From: Bispira polyomma
Lineage: Eukaryota
Direction of reading: 5' to 3'
Assembly: GCA_965649765.1 (NCBI GenBank)
Contig: OZ287752.1
Span: 66,898,001 to 66,962,000, forward strand
DNA: 64,000 nt
Below, piece by piece: positions 1 to 61,890 of the stretch; position 1 is the first letter of the stretch, and every line of letters begins with the position of its first letter. The position numbers and the translations under genes were made by a program. The notes under the pieces are model-generated. The model searched no databases. It was not told where the DNA came from and was given only the letters and a program-made list of their open reading frames with translations.

Positions 1-3000
1 ATTATAGTACTCCATCAAGGAAGTATTATTAACTTCTTGTACTGAATCCATACTATCACCGTGTATCTTATGTATATGACTACTAGTGTTACCCGTGTGT
101 CCATTATGATTTTCACCATACTGATCTACAGTCCCGTCCATATACACGTTATGATTAGCCAACGTGTGTACATTATGGACTTTTCTATTAAGGTGACTGC
201 CATTCTGAATGTGAATATCATGATCACATGTGTTTTTACACATAGTATCCTGCCATATTTTATTTACACTGTTATTGTAGTATGTTAGTACACTATGGTG
301 TTCCATTTTTGTTTCACATCTACCACTGTTTATATTCTTCTCTGAACACCTACTGTCAAAACAAGTTTCACCACCACCCCATATGTCCTTTACCTCTTGT
401 GTAATTTCAAGAGACGATTCAAGTGTTGAACAAGGGTCAAGGTACTTATTATTATTGCCGTATCAAGAACTTACCTGGCAGCAATTTAGTGCAACGTGTT
501 CTAATGTACACGTAGTTAGATAACTGGACCTATGGACCAACGAGGACAGGGTGTTAAGGTCATTAGAATATACAGTTATATTGGCCATACTAGTGTTATT
601 GTTATTTACACTGACAGATACGTTATTAGCTTTAACAAAAGTATAACTAATTCTGTCACTTGTACTAACTATGTGACTAGTCACACCATAAACACTATCG
701 CTAAAATTATTCTCTTGTGACATTAATATATTAACGTCGCTCTCATAAACTCTGTTATAAGAGCTCGACACATTTGTATTCATTTTTACTAAGTTGTCAC
801 TAAGTCTATCAACATTTATTTTAGTACTATTAATAGATTCTATTTTTTCAGCTAGTACTTTGGACCGGGAAGATGTTTTTCCTGTATCATGACTTTTGTA
901 CATAAACACAGTAGCCAATGGGTTTAATTGGTTTCCCATATTACCCATACCCGTTATAACTGATACCATGATCATGTTTTTTAACACGAGCACCTTGTTT
1001 TGGGCTAAACTCGCTGGTCAACGGGTTCAAAGTGGTTTCATAATTTCCAACACATTCATTCAATCTATTCTTAGCCATATTATTACATGATTTGGTATAA
1101 ACATACATACTATTAGAATGAGTATCATGTTGTAACCATTTACTATCAGTATTACAAATTTCCTGTCTAAAAATTTTTGCACGTGGATTTAATTTAGTTT
1201 TATGACAATTACCTTCCTTATGATGATTTATCTTTACAATAACTGTGTCGTTGTAATTTAGGCCAGGTTTATTATAATATTTCCTGCCGTTGTTAACTTT
1301 AGACACATTACAACTAATAGGGTTAAACTCGCTGCTCAGTTTTCTGTCCCTTACTATCATTTTTTATTTGCACACATTTGCAAGCGGGGTGATCATGCTT
1401 TTTACCACATATCTCTTTGTAGCAGTAAGTGCAGTAGTGCTCATATTTGAAACCTCTGGACACGTGGTCCTTGTCTAGCTTACAGGTACCCTTATTAAAC
1501 AAGGAGCAGACACAACTTTCTGTATTCCTGTTTTCACTACTACCTGTACCACCGTCATAAGGGACCCTTTGAGCATTTCTAGCTCTGATTTTTTCTATCA
1601 GTTTGATTTTGTCCCATGTGACCCGCCCTTTTTCAATTTCTTGAAGTACTGCAGCATGCGCATTCTTAGCTGCTTCTAATCCCAAACTCGACAGCGTCTT
1701 GCATTAAGCTAACGTGGTAATTAAGCATAACCTGCCTTTTCTCAAGATCACATTCCTCTAACGCGCAACAAAGCAACCCCTGTGCCCATTGTATTGGAGA
1801 CATTTCGTCGTATGTCGGTTGTTTGTTAGTATGAGCGACGGTGCAATAATCTTGGGGCCAGGTGACCTGGACTTTTACTTTATGTACACCCGCTCTATAC
1901 CGGCCAGATTTTAAAGTGGAAGTATTTTTACCTTTATAGTCGAGACGTGAAGCTCCTTCATAATCACGCAATCTCTTCTGAACTTCGGCTTGGATATGGG
2001 AGTCACTTTTGAGGACTTCAAAAAAGGGTAGCTTTGGAGCTACACTCTCTGGAACAGCCATTTTCTGACCCATAGCCTTTGGTGAACTTTGGGCTGACGG
2101 AAGCACAGAAATTTCATTTAAGCTCACTCTGTCCTCTTGTTTTTTCAACCGTTCGTCCTGATTATTTAATTGCACACCCATACCCTTCACAACCATTAAT
2201 AGTTCAGTTAATTTGTCCGACATGGACTTGCTGTGCATATTTGTTATCTCGGCTTCTTCACCCTGAACATTATTAGTAACAATATCAGTGTCCGGTACAT
2301 TATTTTCACTTCTTTCAACAGTACTTTTATTTGTACTTTTACTGTTCTTGTTAACTCCCAGCTTAGGCCCCATTTTATAAAACACTTGACTCTGGAAGGA
2401 CTTTTGCCGACTTGACTGTTAGGAATTTAAAAGGTAATTCTAATTCTGACCAAAATTGAATTTCCTATGTAGTCAAGCAGACAGGAGTCCAATTTTCCAA
2501 TATGGCGCTCAGCCCTCTAAACTTCCAACTGACTTTGAGCCCCAAGTGTGGAGGTATTTATGCACATAGATTTCAGCAAGCCCCCATGTGATTTAACAAC
2601 TCACAGCCTCAGTATCAGAAGGCCTAGTTGTATACAAGATATGGGTAGACAGCCACCATGTCATTTAATATCTCAAGCTTTGCACACACCTTGTGGTCTA
2701 GTTATGTGCAGTATATACAGGCCAACCTAGGGGTGACCTTCCACTTTAACCATTGAAACCTAAGACTAATATTGATACCAAAGTAGCAAGGCCACTTGTA
2801 TTTAATTTTATGTTTTTTAAGCTTTCCCTAAGACTGACACGGTTTGCTACTTAAATTCTGCAACACCTATTAAACACTTAAATCAATTAAACTTAGCCTA
2901 TTGTATATTACTTTCCTGTACGCTTTTACTGCTGCTCATGATATTGTTATAAAGTGGTTTTCTAGATTAAGGCTAAACTTGAAATTACTAAGGTCAACTT
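1..3000 (-). mobile_element. Ngaro/DIRS-like YR retroelement copy 1: 5' region, gag-like ORF (1323-2385, frameshifted near 1680) and low-complexity start of ORF2; continues off the window start
   Basis: ORF 1666-2385 has KSGRYRAG..VKVQVTWPQDYC..PTYDEMS. ORF 1323-1685 has AAKNAHAAVLQEIEKGRVTW and a Cys/His cluster (CSLFNKGTC..H..H.C..C..H). The same motifs occur in the copies at 32.5 kb and 52-53 kb, which carry RT/RNase H/YR. Confidence 0.75.
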
Positions 3001-4677: not shown

Positions 4678-4739
4678 GCTGCTTGTATGTAACAAGGGGC
4701 TGTATTAGACAGTCAATATTAGACAGCCAAGTAAGGCAT

Positions 4740-7999: not shown

Positions 8000-8052
8000 G
8001 TAGGTACAGTTGACCATGGTCTGTTTTATAGGTAGTTTGATGATGTAGGATG

Positions 8053-8430
8053 AGCCGTCACAGTGGCACTGTGGTTAAAAGTGTGTGTTTCAACATCACT
8101 AATATCTTACCAATGTGGGCTTGAATCAGAAAGTTTGTCAGGTAGTTGCCGTAGGTTGGTGGTTTACAGTGGTGCAGCCCGAGTTTCTTCCACCACTGAA
8201 TCAGGCCATCGTAATATGATCTAAGCTTTTGAAAGCGACATTAAACCCAACTAAATTCAACTAACCTACTGGTGGACGAAACCAAACAGTTGGTCAAGAT
8301 TTCTGCACTGTAAACCATTGGCCTTCAATAAGTCTTCTTGTTAACTTTCCCATATACATGGCCAGAGCCAAAGATTTGAACCAACAACTGCAGAAGTGAG
8401 ATTATACCCATACACCACTAAGGCGCCTGC
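8053..8430. mobile_element. Two degraded tRNA-derived SINEs, tail to tail (+ 8053-8262; - 8268-8430)
   Basis: Box A-like GTGGCACTGTGGTT and a Meta-SINE-like 3' end (CGTAATATGATCTAAGCTTTTGAAAGCGACATTAAACC). The second element shares GGTCAAGATTTCTGCACTG with family A. Confidence 0.55.
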
Positions 8431-9119
8431 CACTGACTGCAATCTAACCTTTAATTCGATTCACGATGCAATATACATTGACATGTTTCCATGAAAATGT
8501 GTCTTATGGAAATATTAATGCAGTTAAAAAGCTTTACATTTGTTCCTGTATCTTGGCGTGGTGAATCACAGTTGGCAGATGGTATTGTTATGATATCAGG
8601 TACTGAAACATGATAGATAATTGTTATATGCATGTAAAATGGGATAAAACCTATTACCTGAAGTTAGGTTATATATCTATTTGAGTGACTTTTTTTGACG
8701 TGGCATTCAGCAGGATTAGAAAAAAAACTAGCTAAGTTGTTAGCCGGGCAATTTGTAAATGTATCAGATTTGGTCACTTTGTTCATGTATGTGTATATAC
8801 TAGTAATCTCAACTGGTATCTGGGGCCCTAGGTATACATCCTAGTCTCTCCTTCCCGAAACCTATTTTGTAGAACTTTTAGTACTCAAAGGGTTGTGTAT
8901 TGCTTATACAATATGTTTCCACTCAAAACGGCAAACCAAAACGGTAATGAAGAAGATGTGGGTCATCTTCACTCTTCAATGTTTGTTTTATCAAGTTGTT
9001 CCCTTCCTTCTATGTAGAGAGATTGAAGGAGGGGAGGTAATTCTATACACACATATATGGGAGCGAGACAAGTAGGGCTAGTTTGTGTTGTGGTAAATCT
9101 GTATACATGACCATGTATA

Positions 9120-11205: not shown

Positions 11206-11462
11206 TTTTGAATTTGAATTTGGATATTTAACGTCCACTCTAGTACCTTTTAGTAGGTTATATTGGGACCGGTAGTTGGAAACGCTGGAGGAAACACTGC
11301 ATACAGTCGGTCAAGGTTCTGCAGAGAAACCAGCGGCCCACAGTAAGGAACTACCACCTTTCCCACATAGGCATCGACGGGATTCGAACTCACGCCGCCC
11401 AGAGGTGAGAGACCAGTGATTGTGAAGCGCAATGCTTGCTAACCACTAGGCCACCGTGGCCC
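11206..11462 (-). mobile_element. tRNA-derived SINE, family A, full length with TSD
   Basis: Boxes A and B intact (GAGTTCGAATCCC), (TTCAAA)n tail, 15-bp TSD CTTTGAGTGTGTGTG at 11191 and 11463. Confidence 0.95.
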
Positions 11463-12649
11463 CTTTGAGTGTGTGTGCATTGTATATAGTCTTTGTAAGT
11501 ATGTGGTGCTTAGTGTAGAAAAAGAAGTAGTAGTGTATTTCCTTGTGTTTGTTTATTTTACATTATATGATTGGGGGGTCATAATGTGCTTATATCAGCT
11601 ATGAAGTGTGGTGTTTTCTGCTTGTACATGCAAAGTTCTATTCTTTCCAATGGTCCCTTTACAGGATGGTGTTGCTGTGCAATGCATAGTTCCACTGTCG
11701 TACCTGTATTCCCTGTAAACCCCCCCCCCCCTTCCCCAACCACAACCCACTCCTCTTGTCAGACAAAAAACCTCTTCTGCCCCTCACAACTCCTGCTGCT
11801 CCATGTAGATATGTATTGCTACTCTTTCCTATTGTGTGTGTGTTTGACACTTATTACCTGTATGCTCTACACATATCCTGTCCATCCCCCCCCCCAAAAA
11901 AAGGGGGGGGGGGAAATACCCTACGACACACAAAAAAAATCTCATCTCAGCCCCTGCTCCTGCACATATATGTATATTTCTGGTCAGTTCCATTGCCTGT
12001 GCTCTATGTTTTTGTGGTTTTATGGTCTTATGTGATTCTCTATAAATGCTATACAGAGGGTATATGCAGAGTAATTCGCACATTTTTCAAGACATCGCTC
12101 TCTCGCCATTTTTGGCGGCGATCAAAATTGAATGTGCCTATATCTCCCTTATTATTGGTCGTACAGGTTTGGGATATGAAACCAACGAATAGGAAATCAT
12201 GGACTGCTAATCTTTTGCTGTGGTCAGATTTGACCTTGGATCGCTTGTGCAAGGTCAAACAGGTAGGCCAAACTTTAAAGGGCCTATCTCCCACATGTTT
12301 GCAATGTGAAACCCACTTGTGCGATTTAAGGCTTCAGCATAAATGCCCTAGAAGTGTGGCAAAATATTTTTAAAATGAAGTTTATTATCTGTACAAAGAG
12401 ACTTTTACTTTTTTTTATTACCTGTAATACAATTTTCTTTTTCTAAAAGTAATTTTAGTCTAATAACTCCCCCCCAAAAAGTGTGGCGAAATTAATAGAT
12501 AATAAGGCAAAATCATACCCCCTGTAAAAAGTGTGGCAAAATCATTGTGTGGCAAAATCAAGTGTGGCAAAATCAATGTACACCATATTTTCTTGGTATA
12601 ATGCAGTGTACCTTATGTATCCCTTTTATATGGAATTTTCCCTTTTTCC

Positions 12650-13012: not shown

Positions 13013-14157
13013 AAAATATATATGTGGACATATTTTCATATTTCGAATGTAGTTCTTTTACTTTTTTTCTAAATCGGCCGTATTTTTTTTAAATTTTAAA
13101 TTGGCGATATTTTTATCGAATCTAAATTGGCTGTACATTCTACAAGTCAAAATTCCCCAGCTGGCTCTGTCTCCTAGCTCATGACCAAGTTCACCCTTCA
13201 TTGATACCTTACAAGATTACAGTTGACCTTTGATATGATGCATGAGTTGAATTACACTTTATTATGAATACAACAATGTAATAACACTTCGGGGCATTTT
13301 ATTAGTATCACACATACAGGTTAAACATTGAGCTACAGTTGTTAATTTCTAAAATTAATGTTGTTATTTATATTACAAAAGAGTTTGAATTTCTTCCTTT
13401 TTCACTAACTCCGAGTATAACTATGCTACACCCAGCTGTTGATAAAGAAGAGTTCTGTCAACATGTGGTATGTGTTCCAGTTCATGGTGTTTTTTATATC
13501 TATTTTATTTTACAAGCATTATTATGATGCCTACAGCACAAAATCATCCATCCCTTTCATAAACCATCATAGTGTTCGCGACTCTTAGACAAAGATACCA
13601 AGACACTGCATGTCACACACAAACTTTAATAGGTGAAGACAACTGAACCGGCTAAGGCCAGGTTCACCAGTGACGAGGTTCTTCCCAACATGAATGATCT
13701 CAGTGCTGCAGCCCCAAGTGTAATTTCATTTCCAAATGCCATATCCGTTCTTGCCATATGATATTACCTCAAAATACATGAAAGTTACAAATTTATGTTT
13801 ACAAATATTAAATTTACAAATAGTACATATAATACATTTATAGATAACTCTGTTACACATTCTAAACCAATAGAGCAATTACTGGGTGGATGGGGGGGGG
13901 ATAAATGTTTCCTCCTTGCTGGCTACCTTCACACTGAATAGTTCAGCATATTAGAATCCCAAATTCCCTAAATTGGCTGTGTTCTCTCAAGAAAGTTTGC
14001 AAAATTTGCCATTTTTTTCTGGTGGCATATTTGTTTATCCAAATTATTCACCAATGTGCAAAAATAATACAGCAAGAACCGCCCTGGTAGCAGTAATACA
14101 CGATGTTGAATACCCTGGTATAGATTTAAGTTTATTTGATATTTTATTACTTCTTAG

Positions 14158-15274
14158 ATCCAAAGGCAAGCAATCAAGAGAAGTAGAGGAAAGAAAAGAA
14201 GATATCCAAGAACCATCCCCCCAAAGAGGCCTGAAATCTCTGATATTTGCCTACATCATGCTGCTCTTACTGGCCATTGTTTATACAGTGGCCATTGCAT
14301 CTGCTCAAATAACAGGAGGAAGAACTAGTATGTTTGAAATCAACTTCTTCCGCTTTGGTCTGCAAACAATCTTTGCAGCTTCGTGTCTTCTCGCTTTCTC
14401 GCAAAATCCAGCCAAAATTGCCATGAAAGATATGCATAAATTGGTCATTGGCGTTGGCTGCAACTACATCTTGGTCACAACTTTCTACATTGCAGCAATC
14501 CTCTTACCTGTTGGTAATATGGATGCTATATACGGCGGTTGTTACATCATATTGACCACAGGTATTGACCTCTATCGAAAGCAGATTTCCAAACATTCCA
14601 TTCCAGCCTCAGTCTTGGCACTTGCTGGACTAATCATGTTGACTCAAATCTGGAAAAAAGGTGAAGAAGATTCCACGACTAAGGGTATTGCTCCCTGTGA
14701 TTATATGCACAACCATTCAATTTTCCCGGAACACATCATCAGTGCCAATTATTCCAATTCAAGTACTATCGTTGACATAGCTGGGAGAACCCAAACATTT
14801 AGGAACGAACTGTTAATTGGCTATATCCTAGTGTTATGCGCAGCTTTTTGTTCGACAGTATCCGGCAATATGTACAGATCATTACTGCAGTCCTATTCGA
14901 ATTATATTGTTCTGTTCTGGGCCGGGCTTAGCCAATGTATTCTCTCAGCTGCTGTGATGACTGGGCAAAAGTATCTTAGTCATGGCCACTTATCACTACC
15001 TATTGGAGCTATATGTTTGAGCTTTACTATCCTACTCATACTTACAGCGACACTGACAACAATCTTTGCCAATATTGTCTACAAGTTTTTACCAATCTCT
15101 AAAGTAGCCATTTCCACCCCATTCACCACACTGTTACTGTATTTTATACAAAGAACACTATTGAAGCAGTTTCACCCTGGTAATCACAATATCCTGGAAA
15201 TTATGGGTATTGTGTGTATATTTTGTGCTGGAATCTTGTCTCCAGTGATGACAATTATATTTGAACAGACCTAA
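14158..15274 (+). CDS. EamA/DMT-superfamily (SLC35G-like) 10-TM transporter gene 1, main exon
   Basis: About 10 hydrophobic segments, motifs FEINFFRFGLQ, LPVGN and HPGN..LEIMG. Acceptor TTACTTCTTAG ends at 14157. AATAAA near 15312. Colinear with the paralog at 60783-61890. Confidence 0.88.
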
Positions 15275-32519: not shown

Positions 32520-35500
32520 AAGTGAGCTCTGTCTCTAGCCGTGCCTACCATCAAAAAAATCAAAGCATCTTGATTATATGGCGGATTTGATGAAAAGACT
32601 CCCAGGATTTTTCCTGGGAGGCCACCAACGCGTCTCACGCTGTAGTATTAAGCACCCTTGGGTTGGACAAGCTCCAGCGGAGTGAAGTCGAGAAACTTGA
32701 CTGGCTCAGACAGGCACATGCACAGAGGCACGTTTCTAGTAGTACCAGTGGTTACAATGCGAGTCGTATTAGTAGCAAGAGTACTGTGGTAGGGAAGCAA
32801 GGGTCGGCCAACTGCAAATTTTACCAGGAAGGCACCTGTAAATTCCCTTCTAGTCACAGAAATGAAAATACATATTTCAAACATGTGTGTGAACAGTCCG
32901 CTGGTGCTCACAGAAGCAGTAATTGTAGCCCGGGTTTAAACTGCTATTATACCGCCAATATAATACCCACTAATCTGACTAGTGAGGTCTCTCAATTAAG
33001 CAGAGGTATATTTAAAGTAGACATAAGCCACGCATTTAGGCATGTGCCTATTGATCTTGAAGATGTAGATTTATTGGGTTTTAAGTGGGACTTCTATTAT
33101 TTGGACAGATCTCTCCCCTTTGGTTATCAGAACGGATTCACCATTTTTCAGCAAATTTCATATGCCGTGAGATATATAATGGCTCAAAAGGGCTTCCATA
33201 TACACGCGTACATAGACGATTATTTATGTGTGGCGTTACCTAGTAAAATAACCAAAATTTATGATAGATTACAGGCACTCCTGGCGGAACTGGGCCTAAC
33301 GGTTAGCCCAAAGAAGCTTGTTCCCCTAGTACTAAAGTAATATGCCTAGGCATTTCATAAATACAGTGGATTTTACCACTTCGATCCCTTCAAAAAAAAA
33401 TGGGGGAAATCAGAGCATTATGTCAAATGTGGGAGGGGAAGCAAACTTGTACTAAATAAGAATTACAATCACTACTTGGGTCCCTCTTATATGTCGGGGG
33501 CCACGGTGGCCTAGTGGTTAGCAAGCATTGTGCTTCACAATCACTGGTCTCTCACCTCTGGGCGGCGGGAGTTTGAATCCCGCCGATGCCATGTGGGAAA
33601 GGTGGTAGTTCCTTACTGTGGGCCGCTGGTTTCTCTGCAGAACCTTGACCGACTGTATGCAGTGTTTCCTCCAGTGTTTCCAACTACCCGTCCCACTATA
33701 ACCTACTAAAAGATACTAGAGTGGATGTTAAATATCCAAATTCAAATTCAACCCTCTTATATGTCTCTAAGTGCATATCTAATATATCTACGATATGCTT
33801 ATGTATATTTGAACAGAATGCTACAATTACTAAGAGATAATCACACTAACAAGCGTTTTTCAGTAACAAGTGAATTTAAAAGAGATCTTTATTTGTTTAC
33901 AACCTTCATCCAACAATTTAATGGTATCAGTTTATTTGCCCATAAACCCATAGATGGTCAAGTGGAGCTCGATGCGTGTCTTACTGAAATGGGGGGGGGG
34001 GGGGGATTTATGCTTGTCAAGTCTATAAGTTGGCTGTACCCAATTACATGTTTCAGCAGAACATTGCCTCTTTAGAAATGATTAATATATTGGTTGCCCT
34101 AAAATTATGGGCTAGAATTTGGCAAGGTAAAAGAGTCCTATTTAAATGCAATAATCAAGCGGTTATTAGTTCCTCACTAGTGGTCATACACAGGACTTGT
34201 TGCTGGCTACTTACAACAGAAACATATATATGTGGGCCAGCAGGTTCGACATAAAAGTTATCCATATATTGGGAGTCAAAAATAAAGTGGCTGATTTGCT
34301 TCCAGATGGGATAAACCAAAAATAATACCGTGTTGTTGCATGATTGGATGGGACCTGTCATGTGGCTGCCCACTGTTGAAACCCTCCTTGACGTGGATAA
34401 TAATATAAAAATTATATACTGTAGCTTTATATTCCAGGTGGTAACCCTCTGGAAAACCTGCTCACAAGTCTGGCTTGCAGAAGGATACACATTGCTCTGG
34501 CTTCTTCCACTACGTCTGCTTACAACAGCATGTTCAGGTTGTTCCTGGCCTTTAGCCTTTTCATGAACTGGACCGAATCTCAGTTGAATGTCTTTCAGTT
34601 ATTAGCTTACCTAGAATTACCTTCTTCTGAAATTGCCAATCATTTGTCTGCCATCAAATTCAAATTTACATTGTTTCATATTAAGGTGGATGCCTTTTCA
34701 GATCCAAGGATCTCTTATTACACCAGGGCCTTGTTAATTAATAGACCCCTACAGGTGAAATTAAAGAGTGTATTTGACATCCCTCTCGTGTTGATCTTAG
34801 TAGAGAAATGTAACTTAACCTACATGGGTCAGATATTTAAAGCAATATATCTTATTAGTTTCTTCAGTTTTTAGCGTTTATCTAATCTTTGCCCTCATTC
34901 CATGGTGGCCTTTTTGCCATTCAAGCACCTGGCTAGAGGGGACATTCTTTTTAAACCTGGGTATGTCATTATTTTAGTCAAATGGAGTAAGACCCTGCAG
35001 ACTAATGATGCAGTTACACTACTGTCACTACCACCTTTACCTTCTTCTGAGCTATGCCCAGTGGCCGCTATTAAAACGACCCTAGCCCTGTCCCTCTCTG
35101 GCCAGAATGCTTCATTGTTCCAGTTCAAGGTGGGTAGTTCCTGGGCCCTCATGACGGAAAGTCGAGTCCGATGTCACCTCAAAATTCTCTTGAATATGTT
35201 GAATTTGCAGCATTCAAACTTTACTTTCCATGCCTTCCGGCATTCGGATGCCACATTTGCGTTCAATAATAATGTTTGGTTATATCCAGTGACATCGCAC
35301 CTGGACGTCAGACTGCGTCTGGCAATATATCTCTGACTCGGCTATGGTCGGCACCCAAGTGGCTTCCAAGTGCTTCTGCTCTACAAAGTACTCCCCAGTG
35401 TATCTGGTGTTTGGTGGTCGGGGACATCTCTTGTCACCTGCAAAAGAAAAGAGTTACATGTCTAAATACATGAAAATGCACAGCTAAAATTCAATAAATA

Positions 35501-44845: not shown

Positions 44846-47440
44846 AAACAATATATGTATATGAGCATTTTTTCAGACTAGTGGCTTCCAAATCTCTATT
44901 AAGATATCTGAAGTTTTCGAACTAGTAAAGCATATGATTGTGTGACTTATTACTGGGTATATATATACATTATGTACAATTTAACAGGTATATCAAGGAC
45001 ATTAACATGTGGCTGGTTGAAGATACAATGTACGTCAGGTGGTAAATATTGTGGTATACCCAAGACCTTCTGTAATCACAAGAAGAACACTGGATACTGT
45101 CAGAAAAAAGGTAATATACATTAGTAGGGTTGTTGTGATTGTTGGACTGATAGTAGCTTTTTTAAAGTTAGAGTTTATCTTTACAAATATATTTTGTATT
45201 TTTGCTGACAAATATCAGTCTTTGGATTATGGAATCCTCACTTTTCAAGGAATTTTGTCTATTTGTTATGAAATTCTCACTGTGGTATTTTTAGTTTTAC
45301 CTGATATTTTGCAAAATGGGGTAAACATGATTGAAGAAAAATTTGCAGTCCCTACTTATGACATTGAAAGGCACCATTTACCCTTTTTGCTCATTGAGGA
45401 GACAACACTCTAATAGTTAGTAGTACTGGCTAGTAGTTAGTAGTTCTAAACAGTTTACATATTTGGTGACATTTAATAGCACCTTAAGGTGTTTTGGTGA
45501 GTGCCTTAATGACAACCTTATTTAGGTTAACCCAATACCTCAAGGTGACCCTGTTATCTGAATACCTACAGTTAAGGTAAACTTATAATATATATATGTA
45601 AATTGTAAATGAAAACAAATAAGCTATAATAGATATATTCTGGTTGGAGGTAAACCCTGCGGGAAAAGCTTGCTATTATACAGAAGACAGGTATAGCTCA
45701 TATAAAAGAATTATTTGTTCCAAAAATATGGCTAAATGCAAATCAGAAATAGAAGCAGAACACAACTGTATCTTGTCTCAACACCATTATAATTCATTTT
45801 TAGTTAGCGATGACCCCAGAATGGAAAATGATCATTCAACAAGAATATGACGAAAGAGTCTATAATTTGAATATTATTGACCAGGATATAGCTACGTCAC
45901 AAGACCTTTGATGTAAGATATAGGTGATTGACCAGTTATAATCCATTTGGTAACTCACATGAAAAGTAACGGTACCCAGAGGTTGAAGTCAATCTGCACT
46001 ACAGGTGCCTATGACCCACCTATTGTAGCCAAGTATTATTATTTAATATAAGGTTGACCCAACTGCACGATAAGTGCCTGAGGTTTAGTATGAACAATTA
46101 TAGTACATAGTTTGGGCCTTTATTGACTATCATTAACATATTAACCATTAGTAATTTCAGTATAATGTTAATACAATACACAACTACCATTACATAAAGT
46201 TTATATAATACATTCCTAAATTGCACAAGTATAGTATGAAGCGAATAAAGGGGCTGACCCCCAGCCTAAATTATGTGTTGTATAGTAGCGTTTAAAATGA
46301 TATAGCTACTGTGTGAGCTGCATTTGTATTTTTAAATATGTACAGCTAGCGTTGCTCTTCCAACTACCATGAAGTATAATCTCTTGGAAGGCGACGTTAT
46401 TGTTGAATGAATATGTAGCCCCGCTACACATAAAGGCATGGAAAGTGTAGTTTGCTGGTGTCAATCCTATTGTGTGAATAATGGTGGCCTAGGTTTGTCT
46501 CACTTTAAAAGCCAATAAAGGGCATACACCATTTTTAGAAAGCAACACAACTATTCACACAAGCACACATTTGTTTAAAAGCAACCACTGGTCACAATAA
46601 GAAAGCCCTCAGACGTGGTACAATTATAAAATGACTCTCAACATACTGTTGCAATGTTTTTGATCTATAAAATGTAACCTTCATTCCAGAAGGAATAAAT
46701 TTAAAGTTTTGCCTTTTTAAACACCTGTTGTCTTTGGCCTTAGTGGACGAAGGTACAATACTGGCCAATCTCAAATATTAAAAAAGCAAACAAAAATAAC
46801 ACTTTATACACCAGTCCATTTGGGACCATACCACTACTCTGCACAATATCCTTTAGAATTTTTATAGTAATAATCTCCTTGAATCGAGGCATGTGTGCTA
46901 CATTTATAGAAATAGAACGCAGAAGCCTTTTAACTTTTTTGTGGTTAATAGCCCAAGTTGGCAAAGTGTGGAATTGGAATTAATGTCTAACTAATGACAT
47001 ATAATTTAAAATAGAAGGGTGTTTCAACTCAGTTTGGTGAAGAAATTCTATAAAAATCAGGATATAGGGTAGTTGAGTGAAATCATTAATTTCCAAATAA
47101 CAAGCTAGCATTAGGAAATCCCAAAACTGATTTTGATGAGCCTGTTGTGTCCTGTCTCTTAGGACAGATAGGATACGTTTAGAAGCGAAAGTTAAAAAGG
47201 AAGAAGCCAATGCTGAACCTGAAATGAAATGTCATAGTTTGATACAAAATACTGGCCCAATACAGGTTCACATACATGGTCAACTAATTCATGTGCTATT
47301 TTGTTATCCACGGGATCAGAAAACCACCTTGAGAGACAGTCCACTTAATAATTCTGTTTACCAGCTTTATGGGTGTATTGTAATTGTATATAATTACTGG
47401 CTGTCAGCATCCATATTGATCTAGCATATAACAGTAATAT

Positions 47441-50400
47441 TGTTACGCTTGGATTGTATAGTGGTTTGTAGATAGTAAGATAGTAAAAGAGCGTTCTAAA
47501 CTTTACTAGGCTTATTGCTATTTATTTAAATTACAATAGTAAAACAAAAATAACATGTGGCTCACATTAAGTGTGTTCAATCTTAACAATTTTAACTCTC
47601 TTTACACCATGGGTTCAAAACCAGATTATTGACAAATTAATCTCAGCAAGGATGCTCCTTTAATATTTTTACAATACCATAGTTCACAAAGTTCCTGACT
47701 ATCGTCCTGCCGATGAAATATCTGCCAAGCTGGTAGCTGTATTACAGTAACGTTGCTGTTGTCAGTTCAAAGTCCAACTGAAGTTGTTATGCAGTCATAA
47801 CTCACAGTACCAGTGAAGAATTGTGCAGTTTCCATATAACATGCTGAATCTTGCCTATATCACCATACACTGTTGTTCTGTGTAACCAACAAGATGAATG
47901 ATAGCACCAGCCTCACTGATTCAGTCATAAAGAGCGTACTGCCAACACCAGTGCTCGAAAAGTAAAGAATTAAGCATCCTTACTATACTATTCATACAAG
48001 TGTATCCTTGTTCATGAAACATACAGAATATTCACTATAATTATACATAATTACCCTTGATAGTTACATATTATTAGTTAGTAATTTTACTTGTCACCTA
48101 TATGCATAATTACATATAACTCTCAAGTGCTTTTAGTATTATATTATTGTATTGTATTGTGCATTTTTAAACGCGCCTTATTGATGCTAGGCATCTTCTA
48201 AGGCGCAACATCAGAAATAATCAGCCAATAGAAATATGAAAAACATAGCCAGGTCATAAGGACGGAAGTGTAAGTGCCAAGGAAGAGGACTACGGCGTAT
48301 AGGCGAGTCTGAACAGATAGGTTTTAAGCTTTTTCCTAAGCCCAAAAGTGTTTCAATCAGTCTAAGTTCAGCTGGAAGACTGTTCCATAATCTAGGTGTG
48401 GCCACCGAGAAGGCTCTAGTTCCAACCCTCTTGGTGGTTTTTTTAAGGAAACAGAGAGTCTTTTTCCTCTTTTAAGGCTGCTGAAGGAGAGTTTAGTAGC
48501 GAGGTAGTGAGGCTGTTTTTCAGTTTTAAAAATAGTTACGTGCATTTTTAAACAGGATTCGATAGTGAATTGGAAGCCAGTGAAGTTTCTTGAGGTATGG
48601 AGTGACATCAGTACGGATTCCCAGACGAAATATGACTCTACAAAGATTGTTTTGAATGGACTGCAACTTGTCAGTATGGGACTTATTGGCTCTATACAGA
48701 AGAGAATTACATTAGTCAAGGCAGCTAATTACAAGAGCGTTCGCCACTGTGATAGCAGTATTTAGTGACAAATAATTTCTGATTCTTTTAAGGTCCCGAA
48801 TGTGATAGTAACAGGAGCCGCCGATGCTGTTAATGTGAGGAAGAATGAAAAAGCAGGGTCGATGGTGACACCTAAGTTTTTGACCTGGTTTGAAGGATGA
48901 ATCTCATTACCCAGCAGTGTGATTGGGAAAAGTGATCTGAAGTATTCACTGTGTTTCTTATTTCCAATTAGGATGAATTCAGTTTTGTCAGGGTTTAGTT
49001 TCAGTTTGGAGTAGTTCATCCACGCCTGAACTGAGGAGAGACACTCAGCAAGTAAATCTAGGTTGTGTCCGGCATTCTGAGTGTTAAGAAAGGGATAGAT
49101 TTGAGTGTCATCAGCATACATGTGATGTTTAATATTGTGATTATTGATGACTGCACTGAGAGGATGAGTGTAGAGGGTAAACAGTAAAGGGCTGAGAACG
49201 CCAATCCGGGTACTCCAAATGGTAGGTTAAAAGAAGATGAAAAGTGGTCGCCCAATTTGATTTTTTGAGTTCTAAGGGCAAGGTATGATTTGATCCAATT
49301 AAGGACAGTGCCATTTAGACCAAACCACTGTTTTAGGGTGTCAAAGAGTAAGCCATGGTCGATGGTATAAAAAAAACAGAGAGATCGAGAAGGGTGAGGG
49401 CTACAGTTTCATCACGATCCAAGGCAAGGTTAATGGTGACATATGCAGTTTTGAAACAATACCATCCCTAAGCGAAAAATTTATGATGTTGGTAATGTTG
49501 GTAATAGGAGTTATGAGAATGTCTAGACATTCTGTGAGAACAGTGGTAGGGATAGGATCTAGTTCACAGGATATAATGGAGTTGGATTTTATGAGTTTGA
49601 GAACATCGTTCTCGGAAAGTGGCTTAAAATGTAACAGATTTGAGACTTTATAGCTAGGGGATGGTGGAGAGAACTGTAGTATTGTTGAAAAACCTTTTCG
49701 AATTTTAGTTATTTTTTCAATGAAAAATTTTCCTGCAAGAAATGTGAGGCAGTAATTTTCAGGCAAAACTTTTCCAGCTGTGCGGTGGAGTATCTTATTT
49801 ATAAAGCTACATAACCTTTTTGGTGAGTTGGAATTATCATTGATGATTGGATCATAGTGCTCTTACATATACATACTACCACAATGAAATATTAGTAAAG
49901 TAAATTATAATAAAGTAAATTAACTTTACTTACAAACACTCCTGTAGTATAACAGTTACATTTTTTCCCCCAGTACTACTACCAAACTGGCTGCTAAAAC
50001 TCCACTGATTTTAAAATAAACTGTTTGCCATTCTACACCTTAAACAGCATGCCTGTGTCAAAACCGCTTAACAGAATACCTAGACTATATTGAATCAAAG
50101 TTTCTGAACAGAGCATAGCTTAAGCTCAATGTACACTATGTCGAATCATTTCCGAGTGATGAACAACAATGTTTAAGATACACTACTAAATTCTAAATTA
50201 CATGTAATAGTAACACTCACACTTAAATACAACTAATGAATAACATGTTAAAAAGTCATCACTAATCCTCAACAACATATCACTAATAATGCATAGTGCA
50301 TCTGCGTATGTGTGATTGGAACTTAATCTTTTATAACAGACAGTTATTCATCAATATTGTACCCAATACACATCAGCTGATACACCTAAAGTCTGTACAC

Positions 50401-50503
50401 TAAATATGACATTTTGAACACACATAAACTAAATAAACTACATCGGAATGTCCACATACAGAATACCTAAATAGTAACAAAATATATAATTTAAATTGAA
50501 ACA
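47441..50503 (-). mobile_element. TG...CA element with 5-bp TSD, probably a solo LTR (BEL/Pao-like), containing an L2 insertion
   Basis: AATAT|TGTTAC ... GAAACA|AATAT. Removing the insert and one TSD restores the RNase H reading D-P-I-L-L-L-Y-A-R. Confidence 0.75.
48140..49860 (-). mobile_element. Degraded, 5'-truncated L2/CR1-group LINE
   Basis: [44 protein letters not shown]; (CAATA)n tail. Confidence 0.9.
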
Positions 50504-53500
50504 AATATGGGGTCTCTAGTTCTACCATGATTCAACATGTGTACGACAGCCTCGTGGTCACAGAACATTTGTATCATATTATGAACCCAATATTTGCTCC
50601 ATATTTGTAGCATGACTATACACTATTTCCATGTGTCCTATGGTTATATCAGGGTGGATCTCATTACGGTATGTGGCAGCATACAATCCCAGACAGCGAG
50701 GCGTCAACATAAACCACGTGATCAGGCTTGTTTTGTTTGTGAATCATGACCACACCATAAAACTTGTTCAGAAATACATTAAACCATGCTAGGTCTTTCT
50801 GAAACTGCTTATTTAATACAACGGGTACGTGTTCTGAACTGGTACGTAATAGAGCGAGCATTCTGTTAGAAAATAACCTTGCCGGCCTGACACACTTATA
50901 AATGTATAACAGGCGACCCAATAATGTTTAAAGTTGCGGTCTAGTAGCTTTATCTTTCTTCTACATAAAACATATGCTTCTAATTTCACTCATTTTGTCG
51001 TCAGGTATTCTAAGCGTACTAGTTTATATGTTCACAAAAAACTCCATACAGGTCACTTCAACACTAGGTTCAGCTAATTTTTTAGCGTTTATGGGCAAGC
51101 ACAAATTTTCAATTAGGGATTTAGGTGTTTTTAATGCACGTTGTGCTTCAGAGACGTTTGTACTACGATTATGTCGTTGATATACGGAAAGACACATTGT
51201 ATGATGTACAAGGTTGCTGATGAGTTGCATCTGAGCAGTTCCGTGTCTGTAGCCAAATGGAATACTGAGATTCATATAGTATTCATTGTCCCAATGCAAG
51301 ACCATGGCCCCATAGTCACATGGGTCAAAACATAAATTACTGAATGCGCATTCAGTTTATATAGCAAGACTTTATCTTCACACTGAGCTATATGGTCGAT
51401 AATATTATCCACAGATGGATATGTTAAAGTGAAGCCATAATCGTCATATATGTCTGGTCATTACTATTGACTGAGTTATCTGCTGGGTATGATAAATTTA
51501 CTATGATTCGACGGGTATCGCCTAGTTGGGGTTTTGACGATAAAGGTGATATATATAATGGCTTGACAGGTGCAGTATTATATGGCTCAGCAATAGAGTT
51601 GTGAAGCGTTTCAGTTTTGACATAAGTGTCACATCGTGAGGAAACCTATGCGCAGACAAATGATTGTCAGTGGTCACTATAAATTTAAAGGTGTCAATAC
51701 AAAGCAGAGATCCAAATCTAATAGAACTGAATAGTGATACTGTTCAGTTAATTGATACCATAATTTAAGGTTGAGTCTTGTATTAACTAAAATACGTGCC
51801 CCCTTATAGTTACTGGTTTTCTATTTCCTGACTAATTGGTGTGCTTTCACAGCCCATTCGTTAAGAGAATTAGCTTGCAAATGTTGTGAGAAATCTTGCA
51901 GTTTAAACCTAGTGACACCATTCCTAATAAAGCTAAAGCCCTGCAGTCTAAGCTGCCTAGATATATGTTGAGTGTTACTCAAATAACTAGAATCATGTGC
52001 CATATAATTATACTCCAACTGTTTTGGCTGGTCACGTGTAGAATCAGTTATTTGATTTATACTAGCTATTTGTCTACTGTCTGGTTCAGCAGGGCTCGGG
52101 TTCATAGGTACAGCAGCACTGACAGTACTTGCAATGTGTAATTCATTATCAGTTTTACCTACATCAAATTAAGGGTCAGAAACAAAGTATCCGTTGTTAC
52201 TAACAGTATTATCGTCCAACTGTTGCTGATTCTCCCCCTCTCTAATCACATTTACATAATTTACAGTATTTACAAACTTGTCCTCTTTCTTAAATGGCTT
52301 AAACACTCTAGTACAAATGGCAGGGGTATGAGCACTGTTTGATTTTTTTAATATGACGTACATCATTGGGGATATATGGAATATTTGCCCTCGTTTTGGA
52401 AAACTCGGGATTGGATATATATTTAGTATGGACTATTTTTGGCAACATTTTCTAATTTGAATTTGTTTTGGGTAGATTGTTCTCTGGGTGTACCAAGAGC
52501 GAAGCTGATTGAATTGACGGGAATCCCCATCACAAACGACCTCTTTCCATTTCAAAGAGTAGTATTTTATGTGCTGATTTAGCGATGGACCAGTTTGTTT
52601 CCTGGGCAGCCTGAAATAGTTGCTGGGCATATGTTAACATATTGTTTCTGATTTTTGAATCTTTTTGGTCTAGAAGACACCCAATAAATCCCTAACAAAA
52701 CTGCATTGTTGACAAATCGTCATATGCAGGACTTGACTAAAACAAAATTCATGAGGCCAATCGACCTCGATCTTAACGTTTGTGTCCCCCTGTGTATGGA
52801 GACCTGACTTAATTATTTTACCTGGAGTCTTGAACTGCACTGGATTGCCCGGTTGTCTATCAGGAAGCTCATGGATGACACTACCAAATCAGCCGGCACA
52901 TTATGGAGCATCATCTCGTGGTCCCAGCTGTGGTGTGATAGAGGACAATAAATAGCTTTGGGGGAGAAGTGGGAAGGTTGGGAATGGGAGGATGTCTGAG
53001 TCATTGCTGTTTGCCCCTCTTCCTGTCAGCCTTCACCTCGCTAATGTCTGCATCCAACTTCTTCAGGTGCTGGGGAATGGCTGCCAAAGCATCAGATTGT
53101 GGTGGTGGACCAGTGGCTCCTGCATCTTCTTGGTCCTCCTCAGATTTTAGGTCATATGATTTCTGTCCCAGCTGAACTTCAGAATCGTTAGACACATGTG
53201 TGGAATCTTCATCAATCCTGTCTGCTGTATTATGGCTAGCAGTAAGAGTACAATGCCGACCCACAGGTCTAATGTGTTTTGGAAATGATCTTTCAGCCTA
53301 AAATCTTTGTCTCCGATGTCAAATCTACTGACAAATGAATTGCCCCATCAATTCACAAGTACATATAGCAAACCCTGAATTGGGCCCCAATGTTTTTTAC
53401 ACAATTACTCATGTCCTGATAGGTTAGCAATTATCTAAATGTGGTGCTATCCTCACTGATAGGTGCATGCTAGGTCTGGCGAAACAGCTCAAGGCATGAT

Positions 53501-53844
53501 GATATTTAGAAATCCCAACAGTACCCCATTCCCTATATCATTTCAAGTAGAGCGTCTGCCCTTACCATGAAAAAAATAAGGACAAGTACAATTAGTTTAC
53601 TCTACCTTTCTAGGTGAATTTGTCACGTACACATATTATTACAGGTAAACTTGATCCTAGTTCAGTAATATACGTGACTATGTCACACCAAGACACACAA
53701 CCCACTTTTACATAAAAAGCAACATATGTATACAACAATTACAATAACTATAAACATACAACCGACATCAGTCCAATCATTATGGACTTTCTTTATATGA
53801 CTAAACTTTATTACGTCTCAATAAGGCATTATCTTATTTTTTAA

Positions 53845-55877
53845 CCCTACCCCTAGAACACCCAGGTTCTACACTCTACCAAAAATCCAAAAATGAAAAA
53901 GCCCACCCCCTGGTAGACCCATAGTGTCGGCAAACAATAGTCCAACAGAAAAAAATCTTTTCTTTCGTTGACTTTTTCATGAATCCAACCATACCATTCA
54001 TGAAATCCTATGTGAAGGATACCACCCATTTCCTTCAAAAAATTAAAAACATACACCCACTGCCTAAGGAAAGTTATCTTGTAACCTTGGATGTCACTCC
54101 CCTATACACAAACATCCTAAATAAGGAGGGCATCAGAGCGGCAGCAAAAACATTTGCCAAATACCGCCCAGGGGCCCAACACCCTACCAACCAGTCTATG
54201 GTACAGCTACTAGAACTAGTCCTAACAAAAAACAATTTTGAATTCAATGGACAGCATTATCTACAAATAGCAGGTACTGCCATGGGAACCAAGGTAGCGC
54301 CCTCACATGCCAACAACTTTATGGGTAATTTTGAGGAAGACAGTGTATACACATATCCAAACCAACCACTCATTTGATGACATCTTTATTGTCTGGACTG
54401 AAGGAATAGAATGCCTAGATGACTTCATTGTACATCTTAACTCTTGCCACCAAACAATTAAATTCAAATCTGAAATATCTCAAATATCAGTGAACTTTCT
54501 AGACACCACGATCAGCCTCAACTCTCAGGGCTCCATAAATGTAGACCTGTACAGCAAACCTACTGACTCACATAACTACTTACTGTACACCTCGTCACAT
54601 CCCCAACACTGCAAAACAAGTCTACTCTATAGCCAATTTCTAAGGGTTAGACGCATATGCTCCTCCATAGATAACTATGACAAACACTGCGTCAATCTAG
54701 CCCGTCATTTCCTTAGAAGGTGCTACCCCCAAGAACTCATTGAAGATGCCTGTCTACAGGCTAGGAGAAAGGACAGAGACATCCTACTTACACCTGCTCC
54801 TAAGGAAATAACACCAACAGATAAAAACCTATATTTTATTACCACACACCAACCAGATTTTAGCGGATCAAAAGAAATCATAACCAAAATTTAGGATTTC
54901 TTAACAAGGTCCAATGACACTAAACATCTACATGACAAGAAAGTCACCTTCGGTTACAGGCGTAGCAAAAACCTAAAAGACATTTTAGTCAATGCTAGGA
55001 TACAATATCCACCCAGCAATAAACCACACACAATAAATCAGTTGCACATAAGAATCCCTGTACCACCAAAACCTGTAGATATTGCCCAAAACTAAACGAA
55101 TCCGGCAAAATCATGAGCACCTTCACGGGCAGTGACTACTGCAGCAAAACCCGAATTAACTGCAAAAGTGGAAATCTTATCTACTGCATCACCTGTAAGA
55201 CATATAAACTACAATATATAGGCCAAACCAAGAGAAGGCTAATGGACAGATGCCAAGGTCATTTCTACAATATCACACCAAAAAACACTAAGGATACTAT
55301 AGGCTAGCATTTTAATCTCCCAGAACACAATGCACTAGATGACATAGAAATACACATAGTTGATTTCATACATGCCCATCCTTTAAGCCCTAACGCCTTA
55401 AACATCAGAAGAACTACAAAGAGCAACTGGCAGCATAATCTCAGAACAAATGCACCACAAGGCCCCAGCATGCAGGAATAATCCAAGGGTCACCACCAGA
55501 TTTTTGCCACGTTTTAAAAAATCCTATATGTATAGATCTTTTAGATGTGCTGGTAACCCTACGTAATCTCCATACCCCTATGAGCTTGGATTTCCAGGTA
55601 CCTTAATACCCAAACCCTCCAGTCGGATTGAACCCTATGGTCAACCCCCACTGCATATCCCTCCTCACCCTTAGTATACACCACAATGATACTAGGCGAC
55701 ACTCAATCAGAGTACAAGTAGAATTGGGAAAATCAGTCCCAACCTGGTCACAAAACCTCAGTTGCAATGAACAGCCTTTCCCCATACAGGGAAAATTCTC
55801 CACTAAGGTTAGCCGATAACTGACCCTGTTCAATCAGGTAAAACACGTCTGATGAGCCTCTCTGGCGAAACCATGTA
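53845..55877 (+). mobile_element. Penelope-like element (RT plus GIY-YIG endonuclease), frameshifted
   Basis: SYVKDTTHFL, LVTLDVTPLYTNI, GTAMGTKVAPS, DDIF, NFLDTTI, LYSKPTDSHNYL, YSQFLRVRRICS; CKSGNLIYCITCK..LQYIGQTKRRL. Confidence 0.92.
55843..55877 (+). ncRNA. Hammerhead ribozyme core (incomplete) at the Penelope 3' end
   Basis: CTGATGA-GCC(TCTCT)GGC-GAAAC-CAT-GTA. No 3' arm of stem I is visible downstream. Confidence 0.6.
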
Positions 55878-57887: not shown

Positions 57888-60508
57888 GTAATTGTAATTA
57901 GACTTTTATTGCGCTTAATCTCCCCTTAACAAAGGGGACTCTAAGGTGCACCAGCACAAAAGACAGTTATCCAATTACCAAAATCAAGGGACAGAAAAAA
58001 GGGTCAGCAACATAGAGCGCACCGGGGGATGATTGAAACTAAGGTGGATATGCTTTAGTGTACAAGTGGGTTTTAAGCTTCTTTCTAAAACAGGCTAGTG
58101 AGGGGGAAGCACGAATCACATCAGGGAGACCATTCCAAACAATGGGAGCATCAAAAGCAAAGCTGTGACCAAACTGTTTAACTGACTTTTGAGTAGATGG
58201 GTGGAACTTTGGAACAACAAGGAAATTACTACCACTCTGACTACGTCGGGTATTGTAGGAACTACTGTAAGTGGAAAGATATGGGGCAAAATACTTTGGA
58301 AACCCAGTGTGGAGAAACTTATAAACAAGTGTAGCTGTCTTAAACACTGAATGCTGTTCAACAGGGAGCCAATGCAATTTCTTCAGAACAGGAGTTATAC
58401 TAGTGTATCGACTGGTGTTTGATACAATTCTAGCTGCACTATTTTGAATGCATTGTAATTTGCGTAAATTAAACTTTGAGAGACTCCTGAAAAGTGAATT
58501 GCAATAATCCAGTCTACTACTGACAAAAGCATTGGCCACAAGTATAGAAGCATCATAAGTGAGAAACCATCTGACACGTCTAAAGTCACGGAGTTGCATA
58601 AAACAGCTTTTGCAGACACTCTGAACGTGTTTAGAGAAAGAAAAGTCAGAGTCAAACCATACACCCAGGTTCTTGACAGAATCAGCTGGACTGAAAGGGC
58701 TACCCAGGATGTCAACTGGGAACAATGCTTTCAACTTATCCCTCTGTTGTTTTGAGCCAAAGATTATGAACTCATTCTTATCGGGATTAAGTTTGAGTTT
58801 ACCAGTTGACATCCACTCTTTCACATCGTCAAGGCACCTGTTCAACTGTTCAAAGGCAGTAGATGTGTTTTTATGGGATAGGTGCACATAAATTTGGGTG
58901 TCATCTGCATAAAAATGAAACTTTATTCCTGTGTATTTGCCAATAACCAATCTAAGAGGGGAAGTGTAAAATGAGAACAACAGAGGGCCCAAAACAGAAC
59001 CTTGAGGAACACCAAACAAGAGTTTACAAAGATCGGACAGAGTAGAGCCAATTTTTATCGACTGATAACGATCAGTTAAGTAGGAAGTGAACCATTTAAG
59101 AACAGAGCCCCTAACTCCAAACCAAGTCTGAAGATAACTGAGAAGCGTGGAAGGATCAATGGTGTCAAAGGCAGCAGAGAGGTCGAGCAATACCAGGGCA
59201 GTAGGTTCCCCTCTTGACAAAGATAGGTGAACTTCATTTTTTATAGACAGGAGAGCTGTCTCAGTCGAATGACCAGTTTTATACGCAGGCTGGTATGGGT
59301 TGTCTAAGTCGTGGACAAAGATGTGATCTAACAGTTGCCTAGCAACCACACGTTCAACCAATTTTGATATGAAACTAAGACCAGATACAGGGCGATAATT
59401 CTTCAGGTCATCAACTGGAAGAGAAGCCTTCTTAATAAGAGGAGTAACCACAGCTGTTTTAAAACCATCAGGTACATGTCCCTCCGTAAGTGAGCAGTTT
59501 ACAAGCTTTGTAATGGATGGTAGTAATATATCACTACATTCTTTAATAAGAGATGTTGGCCATGGATCCAACATGCAGGATTTTGTAGGCGAGTTACTTA
59601 TTATTTTACTAACATCATCTTCAGAGACTCTGGTAAAGGCAGTAATTTCTGGGGGATCAGAAAGAGGATGAACATCAATTTTAGTTCCAGAGAAAACAAA
59701 AGTATCTCTAATTCTCTTAATTTTGTCCGAAAAAAAGGAAGCAAACTTATCAGCTAGTGATTTATCCGAATCATGGGACGGGAGTGCCACATTGGTATCC
59801 ATATTAAGGGTCTTGCGCAGTTCGTGCTACAGCTTCCTGGAGTGGTGACTGTTGTCAGAGATAAGCTTGCTGTAATACACCGACTTATCCTCGTTAACAA
59901 GTACATTGCACCGAGCAATCTGGCGATGTAGTCGACTTCTATTTAATGGATTCTTGGCCCTTTGCCAAGTTCTTTCATATTGGCGCCTGAGAGATTTTGC
60001 CCGTCGGTAAGAATCAGAGAGCCAATGCACAGAATCTTTCTTTGACATTCTGGATACAAGTGGTGCATGCTTATCTAGTACATCACCCAAGTCATGTATG
60101 TATTGTTCATAAAGTTTGGCTACAGAATTGGCAGGTGACTTAATAAAGGAAGTACTCTCAAGATCAGTACGGAGGTCAGACATGTTAATACGGTGGTACC
60201 TCCTATAATGCACTGTATTAGGTATATGAGCCACCTGTGGGGGAGAGTCAATTGAGCATTTGATTAATGCATGATCCGATATGAAATCACAGACTTTGAC
60301 ATCCACAATAGCATCCTGATCACAAGGAGATAAAATAAGGTCCAGAATGTGACCATGCAGATGGGTAGGTTGTCTAACTGACTGTTTTAAATCGCATGAA
60401 TCAAAAAAGGTCATAAATTTATGACCGTCACCAACTGGTGCATCAACATGGATGTTAAAATTACCACAGATATGATATGAACTGTTAATGGAAGACAAGA
60501 AACCAACA
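57883..60508 (-). mobile_element. Young 5'-truncated L2/CR1-group LINE in the intron of gene 2 (APE C-part plus RT; one in-frame stop at 59827-59829)
   Basis: PTHLHGHILDLI, SDH, NYRPVSGL, LDLSAAFDTI, GVPQGSVLGP, YADD. The two ORFs are in frame across a TAG. 3' end GAGATTAAGCGCAATAAAAGTC plus (ATTACA)n. Flanked by (TA)n on both sides. Confidence 0.95.
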
Positions 60509-60782
60509 ATATATATATATTCTCTTTATGTATTAAAATGTTACTTTAAACAATATATTTATACTTTGTGTATGAAAAATAAGTAAATAAAATAAAAATA
60601 AAAACAGGACTGAAACTATAGAGTAAACAAATGCAAGAGAGGCTTTTTGCCTTTGGAGTTGTGTGCTCACTCCTCAAGAGTGGTCGTGACCTTGTGTTTT
60701 TTGTAAACAGATGAACCTGTCTATAAATCATATGTTTGAAAGTGCAGAGAATATTTACAAGTGGTATTTGATTACGTTTTAG

Positions 60783-61890
60783 ATATAATGATGATCTTGC
60801 AAGAGAACTGGATGAAGACAATAACAGCAACAATGCCAAAGAAATGTTTGAAAAAGCCAGCATTAGGACCATAGTAACAGGATACTTACTATTACTCTTG
60901 GTGATGGGTATATACACAGTAGCCGTCATTTCTGCTCAGATAACGGGAGGAAAAAACAGTATGTTTGAAATTAACTTTTTCGGCTTTTGTCTGCAAACAA
61001 TCCTTTCAATCATCTTTGTGGTATTCTGGCAATTAACTCTGAGGGTAGCAAAGAAAGACCTTCATAAATTTATAATTGCTATTACCTGTAACTATTATGG
61101 GAGAACTGCCTTATTTATTGCAGCTGTCATTCTACCCGTTGGCAATATGGATGGTGTATATGGAGGTGCTTACATCTTATTTACCACTTGTGTTGACTTG
61201 TACAGAAAGCATATTTCCAAACCATCTGTTGCAGCATCCACTGTGGCATGTGTTGGACTGGTCATGTTAACACAGCTATGGAAAACAAGCGAAAATGCCA
61301 CAGTCAGAAAAATTGCACCATGTGATTATATGTACAACCATTTGCTAATGTTAGATATTAAAGACGATTATTCAAATTCTAGCAAGTTAGATACCATTTC
61401 AATGAAGGAAACTGATTGGACAGGGTTCCTAATCAGCTACGGTTTAGTTGTATCTGCAGCTCTTTCTGCTACTGTGGCAAACAACAACTACAGATCATTA
61501 CTGCAGTCGTATTCTCTTTTTAGTGTACTGTTCTGGGCTGGGATAGCTCAGTGTTTTGCATCAGCCATTCTTATGACAGGAGAGAAGTATCTCTATAATG
61601 GCCATCTATCCTTACCTACTGGAGCACTTTGCTTGGGGTTTACTATTGTGTTAATCCTTTCAGTGGCATTGCTATCACTTTTTGGTAATGTAGTGTACAG
61701 ACTATTACCAATCTCCAAAGTGGCAATCGCCACCCCAATTGCCACAGTGTCCCTGTATTGTATACAAAGAACCTTGTTTAAGGAGTTTCACCCTGGAAAC
61801 AAGAATGCTGTTGAAATAATTGGTATTGTTTTCATATGTTGTGCTGGAGTCCTTTCTCCAGTGATCGCCATTATATTTGAAACACAGTAG
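60783..61890 (+). CDS. EamA/DMT-superfamily (SLC35G-like) 10-TM transporter gene 2, main exon
   Basis: Acceptor TTACGTTTTAG ends at 60782, with an open frame (YNDDLARELDEDNNSNNAKE) into ORF 60844-61890. Colinear paralog of gene 1. AATAAA near 61972. Confidence 0.88.

Follow-up and report, generated by a model that had tools for sequence, protein, structure and literature searches.

Tyrosine recombinase elements of the window

The 64-kb stretch of Bispira polyomma DNA considered here, hereafter called the window, comprises positions 66,898,001-66,962,000 of the forward strand of OZ287752.1 (assembly GCA_965649765.1; genome 1.04 Gb, 75 contigs) and harbors three tyrosine recombinase (YR) retroelements, every one of which is decayed. 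The elements consist of gag, then pol, which encodes a reverse transcriptase (RT) together with RNase H, and finally the recombinase gene, all on the same strand, as in the related locus L081 with its matches to PF00078, PF13456, and PF00589. The recombinase is very probably made from a spliced mRNA that skips the C-terminal part of Gag, RT, and RNase H, giving a predicted fusion of the N-terminal part of Gag to the enzyme (Gag-N::YR), as an initial annotation of the window had proposed. Since none of the window copies is intact, this hypothesis had to be tested on their relatives.

The features of the three copies are collected in Table 1. The four splice sites named in the initial annotation are indeed present, with donors after 1932 and 52822 (both on the minus strand) and acceptors before 34438 (plus strand) and 47218 (minus strand). 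All four are in phase 1, and each donor splits a glycine codon, G^GT (^ marks the exon boundary), upstream of the KSG motif of gag. Copy 3 alone retains a donor as well as an acceptor within the window. Copy 2 is without the N-terminal part of gag and hence has no donor, and the YR of copy 1, which lies outside the window (L011), has AAG rather than YAG (Y being a pyrimidine) at the acceptor site. A stop 4-5 codons 5' of the acceptor closes the YR frame of copies 2 and 3, whose first methionine is found 30 and 35 codons past the acceptor, respectively; with a matrix trained on other loci, these two acceptors rank top among the 195 and 165 surrounding AGs. The RNase H of copy 3 is split by an insertion, so that it is the C-terminal piece of RNase H which precedes the acceptor; the whole insert is missing from L111, and 47903-50023 is missing from the paralogue L112. 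The latter (G000:C5:67021931-67031930), some 70 kb away, is about 89% identical to window 45000-54500 and is also without the stretch of gag corresponding to 52201-52736 of the copy 3 region.

Table 1. Coordinates of the three YR elements within the window
Feature	Position	Strand	Remark
Copy 1, 5' terminal repeat (A1)	2493..2872	-	two matches in family member L092
Copy 1, gag	1325..2418	-	one frameshift near 1680
Copy 1, predicted donor, phase 1	1931..1932	-	seven codons 5' of KSG
Copy 1, pol N-terminal region	1..1355	-	RT, RNase H, and YR extend past window start (L011)
Copy 2, gag, C-terminal part only	32552..32929	+	
Copy 2, RT/RNase H	32975..34407	+	PF00078, E 1e-11; broken by dispersed repeat 33495-33751
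Copy 2, predicted acceptor, phase 1	34424..34438	+	exon from 34438
Copy 2, tyrosine recombinase	34438..35364	+	one stop and one frameshift
Copy 3, gag remnant, frameshifted	52448..53279	-	tblastn with gag of related loci
Copy 3, predicted donor, phase 1	52821..52822	-	Gly codon four codons 5' of KSG; homologous donor in 92/94 copies
Copy 3, pol, decayed	50497..51943	-	RT and RNase H N-terminal part
Copy 3, insertion splitting RNase H	47441..50511	.	3.1 kb, contains LINE RT fragment
Copy 3, RNase H C-terminal piece, pol end	47228..47440	-	59% to pol of L114
Copy 3, predicted acceptor, phase 1	47218..47232	-	T-rich tract and CAG; exon from 47218
Copy 3, tyrosine recombinase	46274..47218	-	with stops and frameshifts

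By the features given in passages of PMC4157794, the elements may be assigned to the Ngaro-like members of the order DIRS. The alignment reveals a recombinase with R..K..HxxR..H..Y motifs instead of a DDE integrase, its matches to PF00589 and to SAM-like domains being below or near the cut-off. In all ten long pols the frame ends 33-35 residues past the last RNase H motif, which leaves no room for a methyltransferase, and no methyltransferase Pfam domain was found on the two pols searched. Split direct repeats of the form A1...B1-A2-B2, with both pairs and with 3' internal repeats, are present in L085, L091, L100, L105, L132, L141, L144, and L147; many other loci have a single repeat pair, a pair truncated where the locus ends, or no pair at all, and self-BLAST found no such repeats for window copies 2 and 3. 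A PAT-like identity, for which a methyltransferase plus split direct repeats would be expected, was rejected for want of room after RNase H, as was a DIRS1-like identity, for which inverted terminal repeats with an internal complementary region and a methyltransferase would be expected, since the repeats here are direct and the methyltransferase is absent. The pol frame also has an N-terminal extension of 250-650 aa, of low complexity and with short tandem repeats (for example window 1-1300 and L081:2150-4100), in which there is no Pfam match and no recognizable protease.

Conservation of the acceptor and donor

Genome-wide the superfamily runs to thousands of search candidates. Protein searches gave 8702, 6078, and 3645 first-look candidates, 150 of each being scored, and 140 loci of 10 kb were retrieved in a selection that favored long open frames. 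From these came 115 YR frames with a length of 290 aa or more, of which 10 with a gap at the start column were dropped to leave 105 aligned; clustering at 80% identity gave 27 clusters, taken as families, with cluster 17 a tandem duplicate of cluster 18. The family representatives have a median identity of 34%. The spliceosomal consensus sequences are MAG^GTRAGT for the donor (M being A or C) and YnNYAG for the acceptor.

Of the 105 YR frames, 99 share a phase-1 YAG, preceded by a T-rich tract, at a single column of the alignment, and YAG is the modal form in 25 of 27 families. Every one of the eight NYA codons (for Ser, Val, Leu, Ile, Thr, Pro, and Ala) is encountered 5' of the acceptor G, and the following residue may be G, A, D, E, or V, so that the residues vary while the bases stay constant, and it is thus the bases, not the amino acids, that are kept. 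In 35 of 40 held-out loci, chosen only as YR matches for which no gag partner was listed, a YAG is present where it was projected to be, as compared with 1.8% at other offsets. When each family was left out in turn from the matrix, the acceptor ranked first of approximately 40-250 AGs for 15 of 26 families and was among the five best for 22. An in-frame stop closes the YR frame at a median of 10 codons 5' of the acceptor.

The donor is conserved to a similar degree. Gag sites were found by the KS[GQ]...WP motif alone, and copies without a motif match are uncounted; an in-frame GGT followed by A lies 2-9 codons upstream of the motif in 92 of 94 copies and in 30 of 31 families, against a background of 1383 in 27752 windows (5.0%). 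In a first set of gags the donor glycine is GGT in 44 of 44 cases, versus 267 of 958 glycine codons elsewhere in gag. The sequence logo reads (A/C)AG^GTA(A)(A/G)A, the distance from donor to KSG is 3-8 codons, and the donor glycine is followed by K, T, I, N, M, or R, in each case with a codon that begins with A. Control codons within the same motif are free to vary: GGT encodes the glycine of KSG in 11 of 24 families, and all four codons are used for the proline. Here too the amino acids vary and the bases do not; the bases of both sites are kept beyond what the codons need, a check that the initial annotation had called for. The counts at the acceptor, in the held-out loci, and at the donor exclude a chance origin of the sites.

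An AlphaFold model of the L012 Gag (mean predicted local distance difference test score 74, predicted template modeling score 0.40) places the donor glycine, Gly165, in a low-confidence linker (163-165) between a helix at 142-160 and a helical core at 206-288. A fold search with this model gave no match, the best Z being 4.8, and the name Gag consequently rests on position and on a Cys/His knuckle.

The signals might instead be maintained for RNA structure, for packaging, or for another splice partner such as an acceptor in pol, or be inherited relics, and it is true that the copies share ancestry. However, branches of the YR tree between groups exceed one change per site and the AG is retained, albeit in rows chosen to have it, while the donor moves with local indels and still reads MAG^GTA. 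In addition, 16 near-intact elements have no second acceptor in pol at a shared place or phase, and the YR acceptor has the highest score in 13 of them. We consider such an explanation highly unlikely.

The same arrangement is encountered outside this genome as well. Among 45 pattern matches in a metagenome scan, three loci were obtained, L151-L153, which are 36-39% identical (L151 and L153, 38-39%). All three have a phase-1 acceptor, and both of those with a gag, L151 and L153, have a phase-1 donor 13 codons 5' of KSG, where the same Gag helix ends. In viral contigs no relative was found. Upstream sequence was sufficient in 69 database homologues, and in these the matching dipeptide has its peak at two neighboring offsets (32/69 and 19/69); other offsets reach 21/69, and the peak is therefore a hint only. 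The conserved sites and their matched phase, here and in L151 and L153, support the Gag-N::YR splice as first proposed.

Entry into the recombinase frame

The published explanation for Ngaro is that the YR is probably reached by frameshift, as proposed by Poulter and Butler in 2015 and quoted in a passage of PMC13003380. For the present elements this would mean a programmed -1 frameshift or stop read-through at the end of pol, producing a Gag-Pol-YR polyprotein. Across the 83 of 99 AG-bearing copies with a traceable pol end, -1 is the commonest relation of YR to pol (36 copies); most families resembling copy 3 overlap pol in this frame, with slippery-like heptamers in some of the overlaps, and one protein in ENA, P0001, runs pol into YR in a single frame. 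Yet the relation is 0 in 26 copies and +1 in 21, and it is mixed even within families, although some of the mixtures stem from decay. In many copies there is an in-frame stop, or pol and YR fail to overlap, the overlap is a mere 4 nt in families 12, 16, 18, 24, and 26, and in L151 the pol stop lies approximately 306 nt 5' of where the YR frame opens. For all fungal Ngaro groups, passages of PMC3783388 also describe a YR that may be in the same frame or in a shifted one. The junction of gag and pol, by contrast, keeps a shift-like site and a constant frame within each group, as judged by eye and uncounted. A frameshift would also leave both the donor and the YAG unexplained, and this route to the recombinase appears highly improbable.

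Three kinds of entry from gag into pol were seen. Among the gag ends in L012-L149, families 1-6 and 16-26 have A AAA AAC and continue into pol in -1; families 7-14, copy 1 included, have GTT TAA at the stop of gag and continue into pol in +1; and in L151 (1122-1124) and L153 (1317-1319) a single TGA separates gag from a pol in the same frame.

Alternatively, the acceptor could serve a trans-spliced leader, a 5' non-coding exon, or an internal promoter, with YR translated from its own ATG and without any Gag fusion, much as the spliced env mRNAs of gypsy are described in part of PMC4276936 as being without gag and pol sequences. The first methionine past the acceptor falls within 6 codons in 10 of 27 families, where a start of its own for YR thus has room, at 16-39 codons in 9, and at 54-228 codons in 8. 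The initial view that the YR is without an N-terminal ATG thus holds for copies 2 and 3 but is not universal. The other 17 families have no methionine for 16-228 codons, and in the last 8 such a start would lose most of the SAM-like domain, which Pfam places at residues 15-82 of the L144 YR. A leader would have no need of a fixed phase, yet the acceptor is in phase 1 throughout and the gag donor is conserved in matching phase. We consider this explanation very unlikely. Neither an in-frame ATG nor a frameshift entry, the two findings that the initial annotation had set against its own proposal, is conserved across copies.

The spliced route is thus favored by a conserved donor and acceptor, their matched phase, the upstream stop, and the lack of a conserved ATG or pol-YR frame. 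By this route, the host spliceosome would remove an intron of 2.9-4.5 kb from part of the genomic RNA, and translation from the gag ATG would give a fusion of 439-542 aa, made up of 114-202 aa of Gag and 290-350 aa of YR (by arithmetic on 11 near-intact elements). The unspliced RNA would provide Gag, as well as Gag-Pol by frameshift or read-through at the end of gag, and would serve as the reverse transcription template. Splicing would be kept partial by the weak donor, whose +5 is mostly A. The Gag-N region has an N-terminal Cys/His motif in most families, a long helix at 48-83, and the helix at 142-160; more speculatively, it might allow the recombinase to co-assemble with Gag into the particle in which cDNA is made.

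A number of observations weigh against the spliced route. The donor has mostly A rather than GT at +5/+6; the methionine close to the acceptor in 10 families is found also in 14 family-3 copies; the acceptor matrix was trained on acceptors of the elements and not on host introns; and the copies, selected for the length of their open frames, share a common descent. The junction of donor and acceptor is unobserved, with none of the 10 joints in three unlabeled, DNA-like runs on L081:900-7000 falling at the sites. Those runs have flat depth and the joints have non-GT..AG ends, and the joints were therefore rejected as splice junctions and read as deleted genomic copies. An intron-less genomic copy is absent among 124 gag-N/YR pairs and 40 orphan YR loci, among the 40 scored of 53-208 candidates in each of six family DNA searches, and among the 150 scored of 1372-5293 in further searches; these covered a small share of the copies, which makes the absence weak. 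Likewise, no Gag-N::YR fusion occurs among 286 retrieved proteins, which resemble prokaryote-style gene calls on DNA and whose listed sources are all ENA. A YR-profile search for longer proteins gave only P0001, a gag-N-profile search gave no fusion, and no gag-N match was present in the best 150 of 8267 representatives or the best 120 of 321 near matches.

Several candidates for intron-less copies were rejected. L161 and L205 have internal deletions that miss the sites, and the long open frames of L115 (538 aa) and others stem from duplications or frameshifts and not from splicing. In L115 a perfect 3.9-kb tandem duplication (791-8561) generates the 538-aa frame, in which the YR N-terminus is followed by gag.

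Neighboring sequences and known systems

Ngaro-like elements are often nested in or beside other families of the same group (L012, L026, L062, L069, L130, and L011), which suggests clustering or a target preference. Around 20 near-identical copies, such as L128 and L143, have a YR frame cut to 109 aa, and may possibly form a non-autonomous subfamily that spread after loss of the recombinase. Elsewhere in the window, a dispersed repeat of about 255 nt is found in three copies that are 90-97% alike (4467-4678, 11208-11463, and 33495-33751, the last of these inside the pol of copy 2). Two long single-frame paralogues on the plus strand, 13955-15274 and 60772-61890, are 68-81% alike in stretches, the former with a weak match to an EamA-like transporter (E 3e-4), and 58039-60525 on the minus strand is a LINE-type RT frame with one stop (PF00078, E 2e-30).

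A literature search returned no report of a Gag-N::YR splice, although an earlier mention is possible in Poulter and Butler 2015, Goodwin and Poulter 2004, Repbase, or supplements. The available passages of PMC6681497, PMC7192593, PMC4157794, PMC9341512, PMC12477816, and PMC13465315 hold no description of one, those of PMC3783388 mention neither 'splic' nor 'intron', and 'splic' does not occur in the text at hand of PMC9210276 and PMC8547959. The way in which the Ngaro 3' recombinase open reading frame is translated has so far been assumed rather than shown, and exact positions of a predicted donor and acceptor are now named, for example 1603 and 5914 in L081 and 4355 and 7545 in L012. If the prediction is true, the active enzyme is a Gag fusion of 439-542 aa, biochemical and engineering work as well as first-ATG annotations use the wrong protein, and the efficiency of splicing is a control point of recombinase supply. 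Whether animal Ngaro elements in general obtain their recombinase by Gag-N::YR splicing, in place of the frameshift model, we regard as evenly balanced; this broader scheme would have two Gag-tagged enzymes produced from one RNA, Gag-Pol by recoding and Gag-N::YR by splicing, with the Gag-N helices as a particle-loading tag.

In comparison with known systems, the elements resemble Ngaro, as portrayed in parts of PMC4157794, PMC3783388, PMC9210276, and PMC8547959, in the order of gag, RT/RNase H, and YR, the absence of a methyltransferase, the A1...B1-A2-B2 repeats, and a YR frame that is not fixed relative to pol. They depart from published accounts, which treat YR as a third open reading frame entered by frameshift (as quoted in PMC13003380) without mention of a splice, in that conserved phase-1 sites predict Gag-N::YR. 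The spliced env of gypsy, the errantiviruses, and the retroviruses offers a second likeness in the sections seen of PMC4276936: a subgenomic RNA skips internal genes to express a 3' open reading frame, as splicing is predicted to do here, and pol is entered from gag by frameshift. In these elements, however, it is the integrating enzyme that is expressed from the 3' end, and 114-202 Gag residues would be retained in frame rather than gag being dropped. Finally, in the spliced subgenomic Gag RNA of Ty1/Copia, according to part of PMC5580714, a conserved alternative splice sets the protein ratios from one transcript, as is predicted here, but splicing in Copia yields an excess of Gag alone, whereas in these elements it would give a Gag-enzyme fusion from which RT has been removed.

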